IMG/VR virus record: IMGVR_UViG_3300040856_002880
Location: 1 to 24,378 of that record
Strand: one strand, 5' to 3'
Length of the DNA stretch: 24,378 nt
Source: a virus
Taxonomy: Duplodnaviria > Caudoviricetes
Shown here piece after piece: positions 7,819-20,904 of this stretch (positions within the stretch are counted from its first letter, which is position 1; each line of letters starts with the position of its first letter). Under the pieces are notes generated by a model. It made no database searches. It saw nothing but the letters and a program-made list of their open reading frames with translations, and had not been told where the DNA came from. A program made the translations under genes and the position numbers.

Positions 7819-8466
7819 ATGGCAGTAACAAACGCAAGACCTTATAGGATGAGTGAGATTAAAAGTAAGTTATTGCAACCAGCATTAACTTCTCATTATG
7901 TTTGCCAATTTAATCCACCAAGAAATGACTCATTTAAAAACTTTTTTAATCAAAGAAAAAGTGCAGGATTTCTTGGTGCTGATTGGGAATCAAGGGAAAA
8001 CCAAGATTTGATTGAGTTATCTTGCTGTGAAGCATCATTGCCAGGTTCGAGTTTGGCAACAATTGATATTAATGGAGACTATACTGGAGTCTCTGAGAGA
8101 CATGCATACAGAAGACAATATGATCAGAATGCAGACTTTACTTTTTATGTAGATAAAAATCATTATATTGTTGATTACTTTGAGAACTGGTTGTCTTTCA
8201 TTGTTGGCGAAAACAATATAAAACGCCAAAGAAACCCCAATTACAGTTATAGAATAAATTTTCCACAGGACTATAAGAGTTCAAATCTTTCAATAACTAA
8301 ATTTGAAAGAGATTATTCTGGAAGAAATTTGACTTATCAATTTATTAATGCATTTCCAATAAGCATTAATTCAATGCCAGTCTCTTATGACTCCTCTCAA
8401 CTTTTAAAGTGCACCGTATCATTTAATTACAGTCGCTATGTTCTTGATAGAGGTATTATTGAATGA
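7819..8466 (+). CDS. Tail-tube-fold protein (gp54/gp19-like tube initiator)
   Basis: CCEASLPG, FTFYVD...FENW, YQFINAFPISINSMPVSY...CTVSFNY; synteny between gp4 and gp26. Confidence 0.7.
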   Translation: MAVTNARPYRMSEIKSKLLQPALTSHYVCQFNPPRNDSFKNFFNQRKSAGFLGADWESRENQDLIELSCCEASLPGSSLATIDINGDYTGVSERHAYRRQYDQNADFTFYVDKNHYIVDYFENWLSFIVGENNIKRQRNPNYSYRINFPQDYKSSNLSITKFERDYSGRNLTYQFINAFPISINSMPVSYDSSQLLKCTVSFNYSRYVLDRGIIE

Positions 8467-8570: not shown

Positions 8571-9290
8571 ATGCCTTTACCAAAGATTTCGACGCCCACT
8601 TATTTCTTGACACTACCATCGACAGGGAAAGAAATTAAGTATAGGCCATTTTTAGTTAGAGAAGAAAAGTTGCTTGTACTTGCACTTGAGAGTGAAGATC
8701 CTAAGCAAATTACAGAAGCAATTAAAACAGTCATTAAGAGTTGCATCCAAACAAGAGGAGTTAAAGTAGAAACTTTACCAACTTTTGATATTGAATATCT
8801 GTTTCTCAATATCAGAGGAAAGTCTGTAGGGGAAGAGATTGAAGTTAATATTATTTGTCCAGATGATGGTCAAACAACAGTACCAGTTAAGATTTTAGTC
8901 GATGAAATTGAGGTACAAAAGTATGATGGCCATGATTCAAACATTAAGATTGATGATGACATTGTTCTTCAAATGAGATATCCATCACTTGAGCAATTTA
9001 TTAAGAACAATTTTGATTTGAATGCGACCAATGATATGGACCAGGCATTTGATCTGATTGCATCTTGTATTGATAAAATTTGTACAGCAGATGAAGTTTG
9101 GTCAACTAGTGATGTAACTAAAAAAGAAGTCAATGAGTTTTTAGATCAAATGAACTCATCTCAATTTAAAAAGATTGAGAAGTTTTTTGAGACTATGCCA
9201 AAATTAGCTCATAATATTAAGGTAACCAATCCAAATACCAAAGTTGAAAGTGAAGTTGTTCTTGAAGGGTTATCATCTTTTTTCGTATAG
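8571..9290 (+). CDS. gp26: Baseplate hub assembly protein gp26
   Basis: MPLPKI.TPTY.LTLPS...YRPFLVREEKLL, FDIEYLFLNIRGKSVGE, FFETMPKL, LEGLSSFF. Confidence 0.9.
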   Translation: MPLPKISTPTYFLTLPSTGKEIKYRPFLVREEKLLVLALESEDPKQITEAIKTVIKSCIQTRGVKVETLPTFDIEYLFLNIRGKSVGEEIEVNIICPDDGQTTVPVKILVDEIEVQKYDGHDSNIKIDDDIVLQMRYPSLEQFIKNNFDLNATNDMDQAFDLIASCIDKICTADEVWSTSDVTKKEVNEFLDQMNSSQFKKIEKFFETMPKLAHNIKVTNPNTKVESEVVLEGLSSFFV

Positions 9291-9311
9291 CAATGATCCA
9301 TATGGATCTTG
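9278..9311 (+). promoter_or_regulatory. Candidate -1 ribosomal frameshift signal (slippery heptamer + hairpin)
   Basis: T TTT TTC at 9278-9284 in the gp26 frame; hairpin at 9291-9311; the -1 frame reads CGT ATA GCA ATG into gp51. Confidence 0.6.
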
Positions 9312-9469
9312 AAAATTATTATATGTTAAATTTTGCCCTCCTTCAGTACCATAAATACTCTTTGACAGAGATTGAAAATTTGATTCCCTGGGAACGGGAC
9401 ATCTATGTTACTTTATTAAAAAATCATCTGGAAGAAGAAAAACAAAAGCAGCAATCTAATGGATCCTGA
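9293..9469 (+). CDS. gp51: gp51-like baseplate hub assembly chaperone (58 aa, not in ORF track)
   Basis: Manual translation MIHMDLENYYMLNFALLQYHKYSLTEIENLIPWERDIYVTLLKNHLEEEKQKQQSNGS; the NF.L.QYHKYSLTEIEN..PWER motif is typical of cyanophage gp51. Confidence 0.88.
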   Translation: MIHMDLENYYMLNFALLQYHKYSLTEIENLIPWERDIYVTLLKNHLEEEKQKQQSNGS

Positions 9470-11402
9470 TTTTCCCGACTTAGATGATCTACTAAACAGT
9501 ATTCAAGATGAGGGTAAAAGAGAAAGAGCTCTTGCCCTCTATGAAGGAACACGAGAAGATGATTTAGTTGAGGAAGAAATTGATGAAAGGATATTAAGAC
9601 TTTTAGGTCTAGAAGATACTTTTGATATTGACTATGATACATATAAGACTCTTTTAAAAGAAGCAAATATAAGGTATAGTGTAATAGGCACAAAGGACAT
9701 CCCAACAGATGAGGTGATGTTACTGCAAGAGGAATTAAAAAGAGTAAGAAGAAAGGTTGGTAGATTTAAGTTAAAGAAGAAAAAGATAACTGCGGATGAC
9801 CTTGGCGTATCTGGTGCAATTAGAAAAGAAGACAAGCAACAGTACTATCTTGTAAGTAAAGCCATCATTCCAGAAGCAGAGGTTTCTGGTGAAGAATCAA
9901 AGGAAAAGACTGATAGATTATTAGAAAATATTGTTACAATCAGAGAAACTGTAGAAGGTATTCTTGATAAATTAAAGGACCAAGTTAAGTTAGAAAAAGA
10001 TACTGCAGAACTTGAGAGAAAAAGAGAGCAGGTTGCAAAAAGAAATAGAAGAGAATCTGAATTAGAAAAGAAAAAGCAGAAAAAAGGTGGAGCATTAGGT
10101 GCCATTGCAAAAGTTTTTTCTCCAATACAAGGAGTTTTGAATTCTATATTCAGATTTCTTGCATATAGTATTTTAGGAAGAGCATTCCGTTCATTTATAG
10201 ATTGGTTCTCTGACGAAAAAAATAAAAAGAAAGTAGATACTATTGTAAGATTTTTGAAGGATTGGTGGCCTGCAATTCTGGGAGCACTATTCTTATTCAC
10301 AAATCCATTTGGTAGATTTATTAGAGCATTCATTGGAACTGTTTTAAAACTTACCCTTAGACTTACTAAATTTGCTATTCCAAAACTTTTAGCTTTTGCG
10401 AAGAACAAACCTGCTGTTGCTGCTGCACTTGCTGGAGCAGGATTGTTTGCTGCAGGTGCAGTTGTACCTAAACTATTCCCAGAGACTGTTGATGCAGAAG
10501 AAAGAAAAACTGAAGCAGCTCCTGGTAGTAAAGAAGAAAAGATAGAGGCACTGAAAAAGCAAAAAGCAAATTTAGGTTTCTTAGAAAAACTTCAGGGTGT
10601 TGGTTCTGAAATTGATGAGCAAATCAATCAACTTGAAACTGGACAAACAAAATCATATGGATTTAATGGTGGTGGGTCAGTTCCAGAAAATAAAATATCA
10701 GCAAAAGATATTAGATTTGATGGTGGTGGAGTAATTAATTCTGGTTCTGGATTGAAAATATCTGGTGCTGGTTCTGATACACAATTAGTTGCAGCAACTC
10801 CAGGAGAAATCGTAATATCCAAACCAGCAGTTGATACATTTGGTGCAGATACTTTCTTAGGTATGAATGAGATGGGTGGAGGAACTAACAAACCATCTAT
10901 GATTAATAATATACAATTTGCTGCTGGTGGTGGAATGGTTGGCAAAAAGAAGACTGGTATGAAACCAAATAAATTTAAGTTACCATTTTTCAACATACCA
11001 TCTTTGAGAAAAAATAAAGTTGAGAATCGTGAAAAATCTCCTGTAGGAATGTCTTCTAGAAGTTATAATAATATTTCTGTTGGAAATGTTGGTAATAAGT
11101 ACACAAATAATTCCAAGATGATTTCTCAGAATATTATGAAATCGAATAGTTATCCAGTAAACTATTCACCAAATCAGAACTATTCTCAATTGCAATTAAC
11201 TTCTGGTTCACGAGTTAATATGATGATTCCTGGGCCACTTCCCAGTGGTTCTAGTTCTTCATTCATTCCTTTGCCAGATATAGTACAATCATTGCCATCC
11301 CAACAAATGGGTGTGAATGATGGAACAAAAATTCCAGAATTTATTGGAAGTCCTTTTAGTGATAAAGCATCTATAAACGCAGGAATATACGGGATAGTAT
11401 AA
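9459..11402 (+). CDS. Tape-measure-like / baseplate hub virion protein 1
   Basis: Charged coiled-coil N-half, hydrophobic/amphipathic helices (WWPAILGALFLF, AVAAALAGAGLFAAGAVV), and SGAGSDTQLVAATPGEIVISKPAV...MN motif seen at tape-measure C-termini; directly after gp26/gp51. Confidence 0.6.
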   Translation: MDPDFPDLDDLLNSIQDEGKRERALALYEGTREDDLVEEEIDERILRLLGLEDTFDIDYDTYKTLLKEANIRYSVIGTKDIPTDEVMLLQEELKRVRRKVGRFKLKKKKITADDLGVSGAIRKEDKQQYYLVSKAIIPEAEVSGEESKEKTDRLLENIVTIRETVEGILDKLKDQVKLEKDTAELERKREQVAKRNRRESELEKKKQKKGGALGAIAKVFSPIQGVLNSIFRFLAYSILGRAFRSFIDWFSDEKNKKKVDTIVRFLKDWWPAILGALFLFTNPFGRFIRAFIGTVLKLTLRLTKFAIPKLLAFAKNKPAVAAALAGAGLFAAGAVVPKLFPETVDAEERKTEAAPGSKEEKIEALKKQKANLGFLEKLQGVGSEIDEQINQLETGQTKSYGFNGGGSVPENKISAKDIRFDGGGVINSGSGLKISGAGSDTQLVAATPGEIVISKPAVDTFGADTFLGMNEMGGGTNKPSMINNIQFAAGGGMVGKKKTGMKPNKFKLPFFNIPSLRKNKVENREKSPVGMSSRSYNNISVGNVGNKYTNNSKMISQNIMKSNSYPVNYSPNQNYSQLQLTSGSRVNMMIPGPLPSGSSSSFIPLPDIVQSLPSQQMGVNDGTKIPEFIGSPFSDKASINAGIYGIV

Positions 11403-11403
11403 A

Positions 11404-13860
11404 ATGGCAGTAATAGATTCGGAAAAACTACTACCACCATCAAAGTCCTCAGGAAATTCTTTGGACAGTCAAAAATTTCTTGTACCAATAACAAATTTAC
11501 AACCAAAATCTTCTGCCATCATAAAGGCTTCTGATATAAAACCAGGAGAAACTGAAGAACAAGCACCAAGGATTGCAAAGAAATCTATATTATTTGAAGT
11601 CATTAAGATTAAAAAGAGTACAATTAAGATAGATAAAATTCTTGGTAAGAGAAGTGAATTTGTAAAGAAGCAGCAGGAAAGAAAAAGAAAATCCTTAGAG
11701 AATGAAAGTAGAGATAAAAAGGAAAGAGCATTAGAAGGAAAAAAGAAAAAGAAAAAAGAAGGTTCTAAATTTCCATCTTTACCTGGACTTAGTTTCTTAG
11801 ATAAGATTGGCAATTTTATTTTCTATAGTCTTCTTGGAAACTTTTTTAATAATTTTGGAGAGTATCTTCCTAAACTATTAGAAATTGGAAAGGTTATAGG
11901 CCCAGTCTCAAATTTTCTTATCAGTTTCTCTGGAAAAATTTTAAATGCTACTGTTTCTTTTATTGAACTTGGATATAATGCATATGATAAAGTTAGAGAA
12001 CTGACAAAGAAAATTGGTGGTGAGGATGCAGAGAAAAAGTTTGATGAATTCAGCAAGCAATTTAATAGATTTGCAAACATTGCAATCATTGCAGCTATTG
12101 CTGCAAGTGGTGGAACTGATTTTGGTGGCGGTCGTGGAAAGGGGGGAGGAGTTCAAAGAAGAGGATTTGATACTAAAGGGAGAAGAGTAACTAATAGTGC
12201 ACAGAGAAGATACTTTCAGAAGTATGGTAGAGATAAATTCATTGAAAGATTTGGAAAAGAAAATTTAAAAAATATTCCAAAGTCTGCTCAGAGAAGTGGA
12301 TTAACAAAAGTTGCTAGAGGTGCTGTAGCAAAAACATTAGGTAGAAGTGGCTCTAAGCAAGCATTAAAGTTAACCAAAAGGTTTATAAGTCCACTTGTAA
12401 AAAGAATTCCAATCATTGGTGCATTCATAGATTTTGCATTAAATTATTTTGTCTTTAAGGAACCTCTTGGACGTGCAGCATTTAAAGCAATAGGAACGGC
12501 ATTGGTTGGTGTTATTGGAACTGCCCTTGGTGGTCCAATTGGTGCAGTTATTGGAAGTCTTTTGGGTGATTGGGCTGGAGGTGCTGTTTATGATTCATTC
12601 TTTAAGAATAAAAAACCAGTCACTCCAAAAGAAGACAGAACAAAGGACCAAGATAAAATAAAACCCGGAAGAAAACCAGAAACTCCACAATCAAGAAAGT
12701 CTTCTGGAGTAATCACTGGTTCTCAAATGGAAAAGTGGAAAGCATTTTATGCAATGGCAGAAGCAGCAGGTGCAAAGTATCCACAACTTGTGGCTGCACA
12801 GTTTGCACTGGAGTCTGGTTGGGGTCAAAGTCTTGCTGCAAAAAATAATTTCTTTGGAATTAAGGCAACGTCAAGTGAGTCTGCAACACTTTCATCAACT
12901 CAAGAAGTTTATGGAGGAAAAACTGTTCAGACTGCAGCAAGATTTAAGAACTTTGATACTCCACAAGATGCAGTCAATCATCTTGTAACTCAATGGTACA
13001 AGGACTATCGTGGTTATCGTGGAGTTAACAATGCTGGTAGTGCACAAGATGCAGCAGATATGCTTCGTTCTGAAGGCTATGCTACTGATCCTGCATACTC
13101 AGCAAAACTAAAAGATTTGATGTCTAGATTTGCTGATGTTACAGGAACAAGAGATGATATTTCTGGAATCTCTTATTCAGAATCTGGTTCTAATATAACT
13201 ACAAACATAAAAACAGGTTCTGGATATGGTTCTCAAGGAAGTAAAATTGCCGGGGAACTTGGTAGATTTATTCAGAGCGAACTTAGGAAAGGACCAGATT
13301 TCCAAGCAGTGACCGAACATCCTGAATTTGGTGGTGTTAATGCAGTTCACTCTAAAAATTCTTATCACTATTCTGGAAGAGCAATTGATATTGGTGCATA
13401 TGATTATGAACAACCACCAATTCTTAGTGTGATTGACAAATTTGGGAAAAAGACTGGATATTTTCCTGTAGAATTACTCCATGCAGGAAACGATAGGTAT
13501 CATCAAGACCACGTTCACGTTGCATATAAATCTGGAGGATGGGTTAGAGGATTAACAAAGGCAATTCTTGGTGAAAGAGGAAATGAATTTGTATTTGATG
13601 CTGATACCACAGCTGCACTGGAAGACAAGTATCCTGGACTGTTGAGTGCCCTTAACAAAGCAAACTATACAGAGTCCCTTTCATTGTTAAAAAATTATAC
13701 AAGTTATTATAATCCATCTATGAGTGGCAATACTATTATGGTGCAGAGAGTAATTGTAGAAAAACCAATTTCAATGGGTGGAAGAGGAGGTGGTGGATTT
13801 GTAGCAGACTCTTCCAGTTCTAACATAGATAATAATATAGCAGCACTATCTGTAGGATAA
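11404..13860 (+). CDS. Tape-measure-like virion protein 2 with GH73 glucosaminidase and M15-like Zn-peptidase domains
   Basis: AQFALESGWG...NNFFGIKA...GYATDPAYSAKL (GH73/FlgJ); HSKNSYHYSGRAIDI...HQDHVHV (M15-like); IPIIGAFID and GTALGGPIGAVIGSLLG helices; LGERGNEFV motif. Confidence 0.75.
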   Translation: MAVIDSEKLLPPSKSSGNSLDSQKFLVPITNLQPKSSAIIKASDIKPGETEEQAPRIAKKSILFEVIKIKKSTIKIDKILGKRSEFVKKQQERKRKSLENESRDKKERALEGKKKKKKEGSKFPSLPGLSFLDKIGNFIFYSLLGNFFNNFGEYLPKLLEIGKVIGPVSNFLISFSGKILNATVSFIELGYNAYDKVRELTKKIGGEDAEKKFDEFSKQFNRFANIAIIAAIAASGGTDFGGGRGKGGGVQRRGFDTKGRRVTNSAQRRYFQKYGRDKFIERFGKENLKNIPKSAQRSGLTKVARGAVAKTLGRSGSKQALKLTKRFISPLVKRIPIIGAFIDFALNYFVFKEPLGRAAFKAIGTALVGVIGTALGGPIGAVIGSLLGDWAGGAVYDSFFKNKKPVTPKEDRTKDQDKIKPGRKPETPQSRKSSGVITGSQMEKWKAFYAMAEAAGAKYPQLVAAQFALESGWGQSLAAKNNFFGIKATSSESATLSSTQEVYGGKTVQTAARFKNFDTPQDAVNHLVTQWYKDYRGYRGVNNAGSAQDAADMLRSEGYATDPAYSAKLKDLMSRFADVTGTRDDISGISYSESGSNITTNIKTGSGYGSQGSKIAGELGRFIQSELRKGPDFQAVTEHPEFGGVNAVHSKNSYHYSGRAIDIGAYDYEQPPILSVIDKFGKKTGYFPVELLHAGNDRYHQDHVHVAYKSGGWVRGLTKAILGERGNEFVFDADTTAALEDKYPGLLSALNKANYTESLSLLKNYTSYYNPSMSGNTIMVQRVIVEKPISMGGRGGGGFVADSSSSNIDNNIAALSVG

Positions 13861-18288: not shown

Positions 18289-19221
18289 ATGAAAGTACCC
18301 GATTTATTTGTAGGGAGAAGGTTGTTTGTTGGATGTGGGGAACCTGTTGGATTGGGTATAGGACCAACAGAAATTAGAGGTTCTGCGTATATTGAAGGAC
18401 CAATGATTGTTGGTAATCCATTATCATATCCAGTAGCAGAAGCTAATTTGATGGTTGCAAGATGTGTAAATGTAGAAGCACTTACACCCCCTCCACCATC
18501 AATCTTTAAAGTATCATCAAGAACTTTACCACCAACTCCTCTTGATGTAATGCTTGGTGACCCAACAGGACCTGTTGGAATACAAGTAAACTCAACTATA
18601 ATTAATATTTTAAACGCAACTGTACTTAACATAGTCTCTCCAATTACAAGTGGAACTGGAGTTTTAAATTGGGTTGGTGCAAAAACTTTAACTGGTGCAG
18701 AAGCTCTTACCGGAGCAAAGGCACAAGCAGGAGCTGAAGCAAGAGCAGGTGCAAAAGTTATTGATGGTAGCACAGTTATTAATGGAGCACTTGTAGTTAA
18801 CGGTGCAACACAAATTAATGGATTCTTAAGTTTTACGGGTTCTATTGTTGGGACTACAAAGTTATTTGACATCAAACATCCATCAAAGAAAGGTTATAGA
18901 CTTGCTCATGGATGTTTAGAAGGTCCAGAATTTGGAGTATATTACAGAGGAAAATTAGAAAACTCAAGTATAATTGAACTTCCAGATTACTGGATGAATT
19001 TAGTAGATCCAGAATCTATTACAGTAAACTTAACACCTCACGGACACTATCAAGAATTATTTGTAAAGTCCATTGAATGGGGGCGTAAAGTAATCATTCA
19101 AAATAACTCTGCAGGTAAAATAAATTGTAGTTATGTAGTACATGCAAAGAGAATAGATATTCCAGATTTGGAAATTGAATATGAAGGAACGGAACCAAAG
19201 CAAAGAAATTTAGGAGAATAA
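18289..19221 (+). CDS. Virion spike/fibre protein with hexapeptide repeats and C-terminal KxFDIxHP...LEGPE domain
   Basis: GAKTLT-GAEALT-GAKAQA-GAEARA-GAKVID repeats; KLFDIKHPSKKGYRLAHGCLEGPEFGVYYRG...IELPDYW. Confidence 0.65.
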   Translation: MKVPDLFVGRRLFVGCGEPVGLGIGPTEIRGSAYIEGPMIVGNPLSYPVAEANLMVARCVNVEALTPPPPSIFKVSSRTLPPTPLDVMLGDPTGPVGIQVNSTIINILNATVLNIVSPITSGTGVLNWVGAKTLTGAEALTGAKAQAGAEARAGAKVIDGSTVINGALVVNGATQINGFLSFTGSIVGTTKLFDIKHPSKKGYRLAHGCLEGPEFGVYYRGKLENSSIIELPDYWMNLVDPESITVNLTPHGHYQELFVKSIEWGRKVIIQNNSAGKINCSYVVHAKRIDIPDLEIEYEGTEPKQRNLGE

Positions 19222-19222
19222 T

Positions 19223-20647
19223 ATGGCACTATCTGATGACATTGTAAAGGATATGACCAAAAAATTGGAAACTAAAAAAAGTAATATTGAGTATTTTGAG
19301 AAAGAAATTCTTATTATTGATGCACAAAAAGAACCATATGATAATGCAATAGTAGAAATTGATAAAAATATTCTTGCAGATATTAATAGTGTAAATTCCT
19401 CAATGGAATCTGTTCAGAGTGCTTATCAAGCAAGAATAAATTCTGGATGTAAGTCAGATTTATTTTGGAGAATAGAATCCGAAACTGCTACTGATTTTAA
19501 TCTAATTGCAGAGAAACTACCAAATGTAGGGTATGCTGAAAGCTTCAGATACATTGATCCCGATACACTTGGAATAACCACAGCAAATGTTGGTGATGCG
19601 ATTATTGGTAATGGAAACATTTCACAAAATTTATATGCAATAAGATATAAGGATCAACCATACGTTAGAAAGGACATTGGAGATACTACTGTAGGAAATT
19701 TTATTGGAGTTGTTGGTTCTGCTTCAACAGAACTTGCAATTGTGTCTGCAATAGGTGAAGATTTTGTTGCAGATATTAGTGTTGGAAATCTAATTATCTC
19801 TACAAAAGATGGTGTGTTTTCTCCCATAGCAAACACAATCGTCGGGTTTGGGAGTACAACAATTTTTGCAACTGAACCAGTATTTGATGAAATTGTAGGT
19901 ATTGCAACAACATCTTTACAGGTATCAACATTACTTTTACAAGACACAACTGTTGGATTTTCAAGTTTGCCAGAAAGTGATGGTTCTTATGTGTCATATA
20001 CTGTTATTACAGACCCAGATACTTTTGAAGCATCTAAGGGAAAACGATTCAGATACAGTATACCACTAGAAAAGAATCCATTCTCAAAGGAAACTGTAGG
20101 AATTATAGATTCTTCCAATGTTGGTATTGGTGTAAGTATAAATGTTGTGAAAAGTGGCAATCCATCAGCAACTCAAGACTGGAAACCAGAGTATGAAGGT
20201 ACTATTAAGGGTGGAGAGAAAGTAAAATTTCCAAAAGTTGGTGGAGGAAAAATTTATTATAATGTAGGATTTGATGATGGACCCGTAGATTTTATTTTAA
20301 ATCCAGTATCTAGGGGAGATACAAGAACAGTTCCCATATCAGATTTTGATTTTAATACAGGAGGAACATACAACAATATTGCACTTCCTTTATATGACCA
20401 AGTAAGTGGTGGATCTGGATGTGGAGCTGCGGACAATGCAATTACTGATGCAGAGGATGCAAGAGATGCACTAATTTCTAACACTGGATTTGGAAAAAGA
20501 GTAGACACTGCAAATGCACTAAGAACTGAGAGAGCAGATTATGCAATAAGAATTTGGACATTAAGACAATCAATTGGAGGTGAAAATGCTAAGATAGATG
20601 AGTATGGTTCACTAGTAGATTTTGTTAATAATCAGGAGATAATATGA
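19223..20647 (+). CDS. Putative virion structural protein
   Basis: Long acidic ORF (474 aa) with coiled-coil ends and VGIATT/GFGSTT motifs, inside the late operon. Confidence 0.6.
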   Translation: MALSDDIVKDMTKKLETKKSNIEYFEKEILIIDAQKEPYDNAIVEIDKNILADINSVNSSMESVQSAYQARINSGCKSDLFWRIESETATDFNLIAEKLPNVGYAESFRYIDPDTLGITTANVGDAIIGNGNISQNLYAIRYKDQPYVRKDIGDTTVGNFIGVVGSASTELAIVSAIGEDFVADISVGNLIISTKDGVFSPIANTIVGFGSTTIFATEPVFDEIVGIATTSLQVSTLLLQDTTVGFSSLPESDGSYVSYTVITDPDTFEASKGKRFRYSIPLEKNPFSKETVGIIDSSNVGIGVSINVVKSGNPSATQDWKPEYEGTIKGGEKVKFPKVGGGKIYYNVGFDDGPVDFILNPVSRGDTRTVPISDFDFNTGGTYNNIALPLYDQVSGGSGCGAADNAITDAEDARDALISNTGFGKRVDTANALRTERADYAIRIWTLRQSIGGENAKIDEYGSLVDFVNNQEII

Positions 20648-20904
20648 ACAACACAATTTATACCAACACTGATAATCTTGTTATTGCAAGAGGAAAAGTC
20701 TTTCACAACAATACAATTTCATTACCAAAGGAATGGGAAAAGACTGTCAATCCCAAAACAATTACAGTATCCATAACTCCGTGTGGAATGTACCATAAGA
20801 TTTTTGTGAAATATGTTAATATTAAAGAGATTAAATTGGATTCTGATGCAAAGGTTCCAATTGAGTGTTATTATCAAGTAGTTGCAGAACTAAATAATCA
20901 ATAA
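20644..20904 (+). CDS. Small protein paralogous to the C-terminus of 18289..19221
   Basis: RGKV...ISLPKEW...VNPKTITVSITP.G....IFVK aligns with RGKL...IELPDYW...VDPESITVNLTP.G....LFVK. Confidence 0.75.
   Translation: MNNTIYTNTDNLVIARGKVFHNNTISLPKEWEKTVNPKTITVSITPCGMYHKIFVKYVNIKEIKLDSDAKVPIECYYQVVAELNNQ
20890..20896 (+). promoter_or_regulatory. Putative late promoter (CTAAATA)
   Basis: CTAAATA about 22 nt upstream of ATG 20918. Confidence 0.55.

Follow-up and report, generated by a model that had tools for sequence, protein, structure and literature searches.

The gp26/gp51 junction described here lies on the plus strand of a 24,378-nucleotide tailed-phage sequence (IMG/VR record IMGVR_UViG_3300040856_002880), the whole of which is referred to as the window. 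The 3′-end of gp26 reads TCA TCT TTT TTC GTA TAG, and the heptamer T TTT TTC that an earlier note on this DNA had placed at 9278–9284 is found at exactly that position. The same note had the -1 frame running open into gp51, and this also holds, as there is no stop between 9284 and the ATG at 9293, where a 58-aa ORF (9293–9469) begins; a further in-frame ATG is present at 9302. A tandem slip at the heptamer is computed to give a fusion of 299 aa, in agreement with the approximate length previously claimed. The features of the locus are as follows:

7819..8466, plus strand: tail-tube-family gene upstream of gp26 (PF23849, E 3.8e-20; phrog_45)
8571..9290, plus strand: gp26, the short form (TAC-N, G-equivalent), 239 aa, with the tail-assembly-chaperone fold at residues ~1–96
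9264..9269, plus strand: SD-like GAAGGG (Glu-Gly codons), 8 nt upstream of the heptamer, a weak candidate stimulator
9278..9284, plus strand: T TTT TTC, the slippery heptamer, separated from the gp26 stop by one codon
9284..9469, plus strand: -1 frame segment of 61 codons, in which the gp51 annotation (58 aa) starts at 9293; predicted to form the C-terminal domain of the long form (299 aa, T-equivalent)
9295..9308, plus strand: hairpin core of 5 bp, GATCC-ATAT-GGATC, 10 nt past the heptamer and here extendable to 9291–9311
9459..13860, plus strand: two long genes (647 and 818 aa), candidate tape-measure/tail-lysin genes

The downstream genes had been called tape-measure-like. Their position fits this description, but profile support comes down to one weak match, in the second gene. 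The 818-aa product contains a glucosaminidase domain and weakly matches the tape measure family phrog_167 (E 8.2e-6), while no tape-measure family among the Pfam and phrog profiles matched the 647-aa product. Elsewhere in the window, two ORFs (18289–19221 and 20644–20904) share matches to the unknown families phrog_17490 and phrog_28536, and the latter, encoding 86 aa, seems to repeat on its own a C-terminal domain of the 310-aa product of the former.

The product of gp26 matches PF12322 (E 7.5e-77) and phrog_150 at positions 5–232. An AlphaFold2 model based on 101 sequences reached a pLDDT of 88.9. Its top structural matches among 48,161 chains were 3FGX (Z 8.1, 86 aligned residues, rmsd 4.1), 2OB9 from HK97 (Z 7.4, 83 aligned, rmsd 3.6) and 3KLU (Z 7.3, 86 aligned, rmsd 4.3), scores that are moderate and lie in the Z 7–8 range that the tool calls common; the next match stood at Z 5.4. 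These alignments all fall within gp26 residues ~1–96, and a passage of PMC9603447 names all three proteins as tail assembly chaperones (TACs). Because the three best matches all come from the one expected family, the N-terminal ~96 residues of the modelled gp26 are assigned a chaperone-type fold, the agreement being specific although the Z-scores are moderate. The structural comparison with tail assembly chaperones that had been proposed as a check thus favours the chaperone assignment. In a Foldseek search of the PDB with the same model, nothing was found at E ≤ 0.001 (2OB9 ranked 25th, with a probability of 0.60), and a search of viral models returned mainly baseplate-hub relatives and unnamed proteins. 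The gp26 profile retrieved nothing below E 0.1 from PDB sequences, and an Atlas search with residues 1–95 gave no usable match.

The -1 segment matches phrog_634, the gp51 family (E 9e-27), as well as positions 241–280 of the gp26 profile phrog_150, and it matches Atlas clusters with PF28602 (Gp51_C). The Pfam families of known T domains gave no match to the added segment of the window, and DUF6760 was matched by 2/98 members, at E 0.08 only. Isolate records annotate gp51 as a separate gene of 32 to 59 codons with arbitrary starts. Here, “gp51” would be mainly a domain rather than a free-standing gene.

For comparison, loci were gathered from IMG/VR (240 loci, the best 80 each for the gp26 of the window, Syn33 and Melnitz-3) and from 14 isolates hand-picked among 60 listed phage records, out of 693 that matched. 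Together with the window, and with one locus that runs off its contig (L193) left out, these amounted to 254 loci, which dereplication at 90% reduced to 117. The sample spans gp26 homologs down to 24% identity, although it clusters round three seeds, is non-random and contains related loci that are not independent. Start-codon and folding counts refer to 109 of the 117, since loci with less than 200 nt downstream or without a heptamer were omitted. The label “cyanophage” for the source of the window is a putative one, which rests on Synechococcus phages being the closest isolates (73% identity) among the matches listed. A query with SRB7757 matched no viral contigs.

In all 250 scorable loci out of the 254 gp26 loci, the gp51 profile placed gp51 in the -1 frame relative to gp26; the four unscorable loci comprise three that are truncated and one that is too diverged. 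No scorable locus had gp51 solely in the 0 or +1 frame, and one had an additional +1 match. The variable frame offset that the earlier note had named as evidence against its proposal is therefore absent from these cyanophage-like homologs. Nor are non-slippery Phe codons, its other counter-indication, the prevailing pattern: T TTT TTN was found within the last six gp26 codons of 250/254 loci, and of 113/117 after dereplication. The last base of the heptamer in the 250 loci is C in 196, A in 28, T in 25 and G in 1. Among the isolates, the slippery site is kept in 11/14, down to 24% identity.

The same pattern is infrequent elsewhere. Within the same genes, it is present in 2/145 internal Phe-Phe pairs and in 10/434 internal Phe-Phe/Leu pairs. 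Across the 18 other ORFs of the window, an in-register T TTT TTN occupies 3/6729 codon positions, and in none of the 18 does it fall within the last six codons. This rarity in the coding sequence of an AT-rich genome looks as if the heptamer were counter-selected outside the shift site.

The codon that precedes the run is TCT, AGT, GAT, AAT or GCT, and its third base is always T. On a quick tree, the TCT and AGT labels each force at least seven gains or losses on the starred branches. Codon use elsewhere (0.63 × 0.69) predicts the pattern at a frequency of ~0.43, compared with the 113/117 observed. The last codon of the heptamer also switches from Phe to Leu while the T run persists; a group of 29 loci (among L206–L249) has A or G as the last base of T TTT TTN and so encodes Phe-Leu in place of Phe-Phe. 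Since the amino acids dictate neither the last base of the codon ahead of the run nor the choice of TTT over TTC, protein conservation by itself does not suffice to account for the T run.

Four loci lack the heptamer in the last six codons of gp26. In one of them (L252, 1900–1960), seven codons separate the T run from a displaced gp26 stop, and the frame overlap is longer than in other homologs. The remaining three are the Vibrio phages VAP7, D528 and GR28A, in which a gp51-like ORF in the -1 frame follows a TAATG stop-start overlap without a heptamer; these phages may either slip at a different sequence or make the T domain as a free protein. The -1 segment and the slippery site are both present in Aeromonas phage 65.2 and Acinetobacter phage SH-Ab 15599, although no gene is annotated there. 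These junctions and segments are located as follows:

L091:3200–3420, L094:3100–3355 and L095:3180–3420: junctions of Vibrio phages VAP7, D528 and GR28A
L090:3214–3378: unannotated -1 segment of Aeromonas phage 65.2
L092:3187–3360: unannotated -1 segment of Acinetobacter phage SH-Ab 15599

A search for longer forms of gp26 returned 80 proteins (P0121–P0200), many of which carry PF12322 and PF28602 in one chain. These single-chain proteins are nearly all single-member clusters, and several of the 17 inspected are garbled at the junction or truncated. Indels introduced during assembly, at or close to the T run, may account for them, and they were not counted in favour of natural fusions. One of them (P0123), folded from its sequence alone, gave a model too poor to use (pLDDT 39.5).

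With the frame and the run so widely retained, the junction is very probably a programmed frameshift site, at which, in a minority of ribosomes, the two tRNA-Phe on U UUU UUC would slip back by one base, yielding a short and a long chaperone. Most ribosomes would terminate at 9288 and release the 239-residue gp26. In the minority that slip, the tRNA-Phe pair would leave UUU UUC for UUU UUU, one base upstream, and the Arg codon at 9284 would be read next, giving the predicted 299-residue gp26-gp51 fusion. By analogy with lambda G/GT, many short copies would coat the tape measure protein, the rarer long form would use its added domain to join the tape-measure complex with the tail tube protein, and neither form would stay in the virion.

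One alternative is that gp51 is a separate small gene, translated by re-initiation or coupling at the ATG two bases past the gp26 stop, and that the T run merely encodes a conserved Ser-Phe-Phe terminus. The window itself offers suitable starts at 9293 and 9302, an early ATG (within the first seven codons of the -1 segment) is present in 44/109 non-redundant homologs, and the TAATG overlap of the three Vibrio phages would suit such coupling. The lack of a clear SD sequence at gp51, pointed out in the earlier note, is not diagnostic: gp26 and 7/18 other genes of the window score equally weakly, so that an SD appears dispensable here. A separate gene is harder to reconcile with the 53/109 homologs in which no ATG, GTG or TTG occurs before codon 12 of the -1 segment. 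In 48–51 of these 53, Leu3, His5, Leu8 and Tyr11 are retained, with synonymous variation and with third positions the most variable, and codons 3–11 are interrupted by stops in 0/53 in the -1 frame, compared with 19 in one of the alternative frames and 35 in the other. In P-SSM7, the first Met comes at codon 33 or later. This conservation of N-terminal residues ahead of any start codon is the strongest argument for translation from upstream, and entry from upstream would best explain the start-less segments. Mere coding of Ser-Phe-Phe also sits badly with the excess of the slippery pattern over the frequency predicted from codon use, and with the change from Phe to Leu beneath an unchanged run. 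A separate gp51 in place of the fusion is accordingly improbable. In the window genome alone, the two in-frame ATGs make a free gp51 of 58 or 55 aa possible, and a mixed case, with the fusion plus some free gp51, is possible in the clade of the window.

The fusion could also arise during transcription, if RNA polymerase added one U within the T run. In favour of this, the signal consists of a homopolymer, the resulting protein would hardly differ, and the run extends to eight T in 20/234 loci. Transcriptional slippage usually needs 8–9 T, however, and the run comprises just six T in 212/234 loci. Its register is moreover fixed as X XXY YYZ, which slippage by the polymerase would not need. Such an origin of the fusion seems very improbable. 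Ribosomal frameshifting thus remains the preferred explanation, and the lambda G/GT-like chaperone system proposed in the earlier note is upheld by the constant -1 frame, the near-constant T run, the many start-less homologs and the TAC fold.

Stimulatory elements appear less general than had been supposed. The proposed hairpin at 9291–9311 is present in the minimum-energy fold (86 nt; z -1.77, with 10/200 shuffles folding as well) and amounts to -7.7 kcal/mol by itself. Its 5-bp core (9295–9308) is conserved, whereas the CAA/UUG pairs outside it fail to form in 15–16 of 33 close homologs. Two-sided changes affect three of the core pairs, in 4, 7 and 5 of the 33, partly at synonymous sites. 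The covariation score of the core was matched by 0/500 shuffles, a test that is inflated by relatedness. All five core pairs are kept in 21/30 homologs with His-Met at the place of the hairpin. The hairpin had also been described as burying both AUGs of gp51; it does involve them, but each AUG is only partly paired. A long stem in the Syn33/P-SSM7 clade (35 loci) was rejected as evidence, as it shows no two-sided changes.

Over the 109 homologs, the 15 codons that follow the slippery site are more stably folded than their synonymous resamplings (mean z -1.5), with mean z of -0.4 and -0.8 further downstream. Ahead of the heptamer, pairing to the anti-SD is -6.0 kcal/mol, compared with -5.2 kcal/mol for synonymous resampling, and is stronger in 76/109. 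Glu-Gly pairs at the SD-like place (n = 101) use GAG in 58 and GGG in 30, compared with 26% and 7% elsewhere. In dnaX, the SD lies at a spacing of 10 nt, and the spacing here is 8 nt. GAAGGG occurs where it had been located (9264–9269); it is slightly enriched but weak as a candidate stimulator. A general part in stimulation is not borne out for either element, the hairpin covarying only in the clade of the window and the SD-like sequence being weak, and there is apparently no universal stimulator. The hairpin is best seen as an accessory of this one clade, and it may make ribosomes pause, mask the AUGs within gp51, or combine the two effects.

Strong structure (z below -1.5) was found in 37/44 homologs with an early ATG, compared with 12/65 without; the early-ATG homologs belong mostly to one clade, plus S-PM2. 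On the strength of this difference, it is conceivable, though on balance unlikely, that the hairpin acts mainly as a lock on the AUGs, that the bare U6 run suffices for slippage in T4-like phages, and that the Vibrio phages supply a free T domain in trans. If this were true, lineages that gained an early Met would have evolved a stem over the AUG, blocking free gp51, and the Vibrio phages, with the run lost and a stop-start overlap in its place, would represent a third solution.

The preferred arrangement, a short chaperone and a -1 extended form, resembles lambda gpG/gpGT, P2 E/E+E′ and HK97 gp13 in that both forms are predicted from a heptamer ending the first ORF. It also resembles the lambda, P2 and HK97 chaperones in having a tube-family gene upstream, and the predicted N-terminal fold resembles HK97 gp13. 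In lambda, the G/GT ratio is given as 30:1 and the T domain is stated to bind the tail shaft protein, in a section of PMC5009743. Unlike the solved chaperone chains (96–119 residues), gp26 is 239 aa long, about twice their length, with extra domains beyond residue ~96, and the added domain of the window has no detectable sequence match to known T domains among the Pfam families searched. A comparable case is the -1 frameshift of Pakpunavirus and Vandenendeviridae TAC genes on GTTTTT, which, as presented in a portion of PMC12846349, likewise relies on a comparative argument, a T-rich signal and a contractile tail and is computational only; it differs in phage family and in slippery sequence.

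T4 is treated as an exception to the G/GT rule in an excerpt of a 2016 review (PMC5009743). Its gp26 (208 aa) and gp51 (249 aa) are listed as hub assembly chaperones in part of PMC3004832, where gp51 is described as required yet absent from the particle. The two T4 genes lie back to back on opposite strands (divergent), and T4 gene 26 has no slippery run at its end. T4 gp26 matches the gp26 profile only (47 bits). T4 gp51 shows weak matches in the expected order, with the gp26 profile at residues 15–128 (14.8 bits) and the gp51 profile at 209–243 (16.5 bits). As T4 gp51 matches both profiles in order and T4 gp26 only the first, T4 gp51 appears to be a hard-coded gp26-plus-gp51 fusion, and T4 would obtain the pair from two genes. 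The window is like T4 in that its gp26 is homologous along the length of T4 gp26 and its gp51 corresponds to about the C-terminal 35 residues of T4 gp51. Unlike the two full genes of T4, a single locus in the window would yield both forms; no separate full-length long gene was found among the 16 window ORFs scanned, in which there is a single PF12322 match and the gp51-like part spans 58–61 residues.

An account of T4 genes 26 and 51 as a short/long pair was reportedly given by Vladimirov, Gautam and Davidson in Virology in 2022, and the frameshift is said there to be kept in several T4-like groups. Poly-T stretches are cited as -1 signals in the TAC-N genes of T4-like phages, with reference to Vladimirov, Gautam and Davidson 2022 (Virology 566:9, pmid 34826709), in a passage of PMC12846349, and a passage of PMC10885494, citing Vladimirov 2022, states that in some T4-like phages the short form and the fused long form are encoded by two separate genes. 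As far as these passages convey it, the gp26/gp51 of the window is the same kind of locus as the T4-like TAC-N/TAC-NC genes of Vladimirov 2022. The earlier note had considered the system potentially new for T4-like cyanophages; novelty is not supported, since the two citing papers, in the passages concerned, already attribute both the chaperone identity and the poly-T frameshift of T4-like phages to Vladimirov 2022. In open-access full texts, no experimental test of the T4-like gp26/gp51 frameshift and no cyanophage-specific account of it were found, and sections of PMC9024508, PMC12859696 and PMC11526630 added nothing on it.

The probable gp26/gp51 frameshift is a further case of a system already proposed in print, and the locus counts and the clade-limited covariation of the hairpin may be additions to the account of Vladimirov 2022. 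The value of the present analysis therefore lies in confirming a published computational proposal rather than in describing a new system. The results favour a new annotation for the small “gp51” of T4-like cyanophages, as that half of a tail chaperone which is reached by frameshifting, and the large sample backs the view that T4 is no true exception to the G/GT rule.
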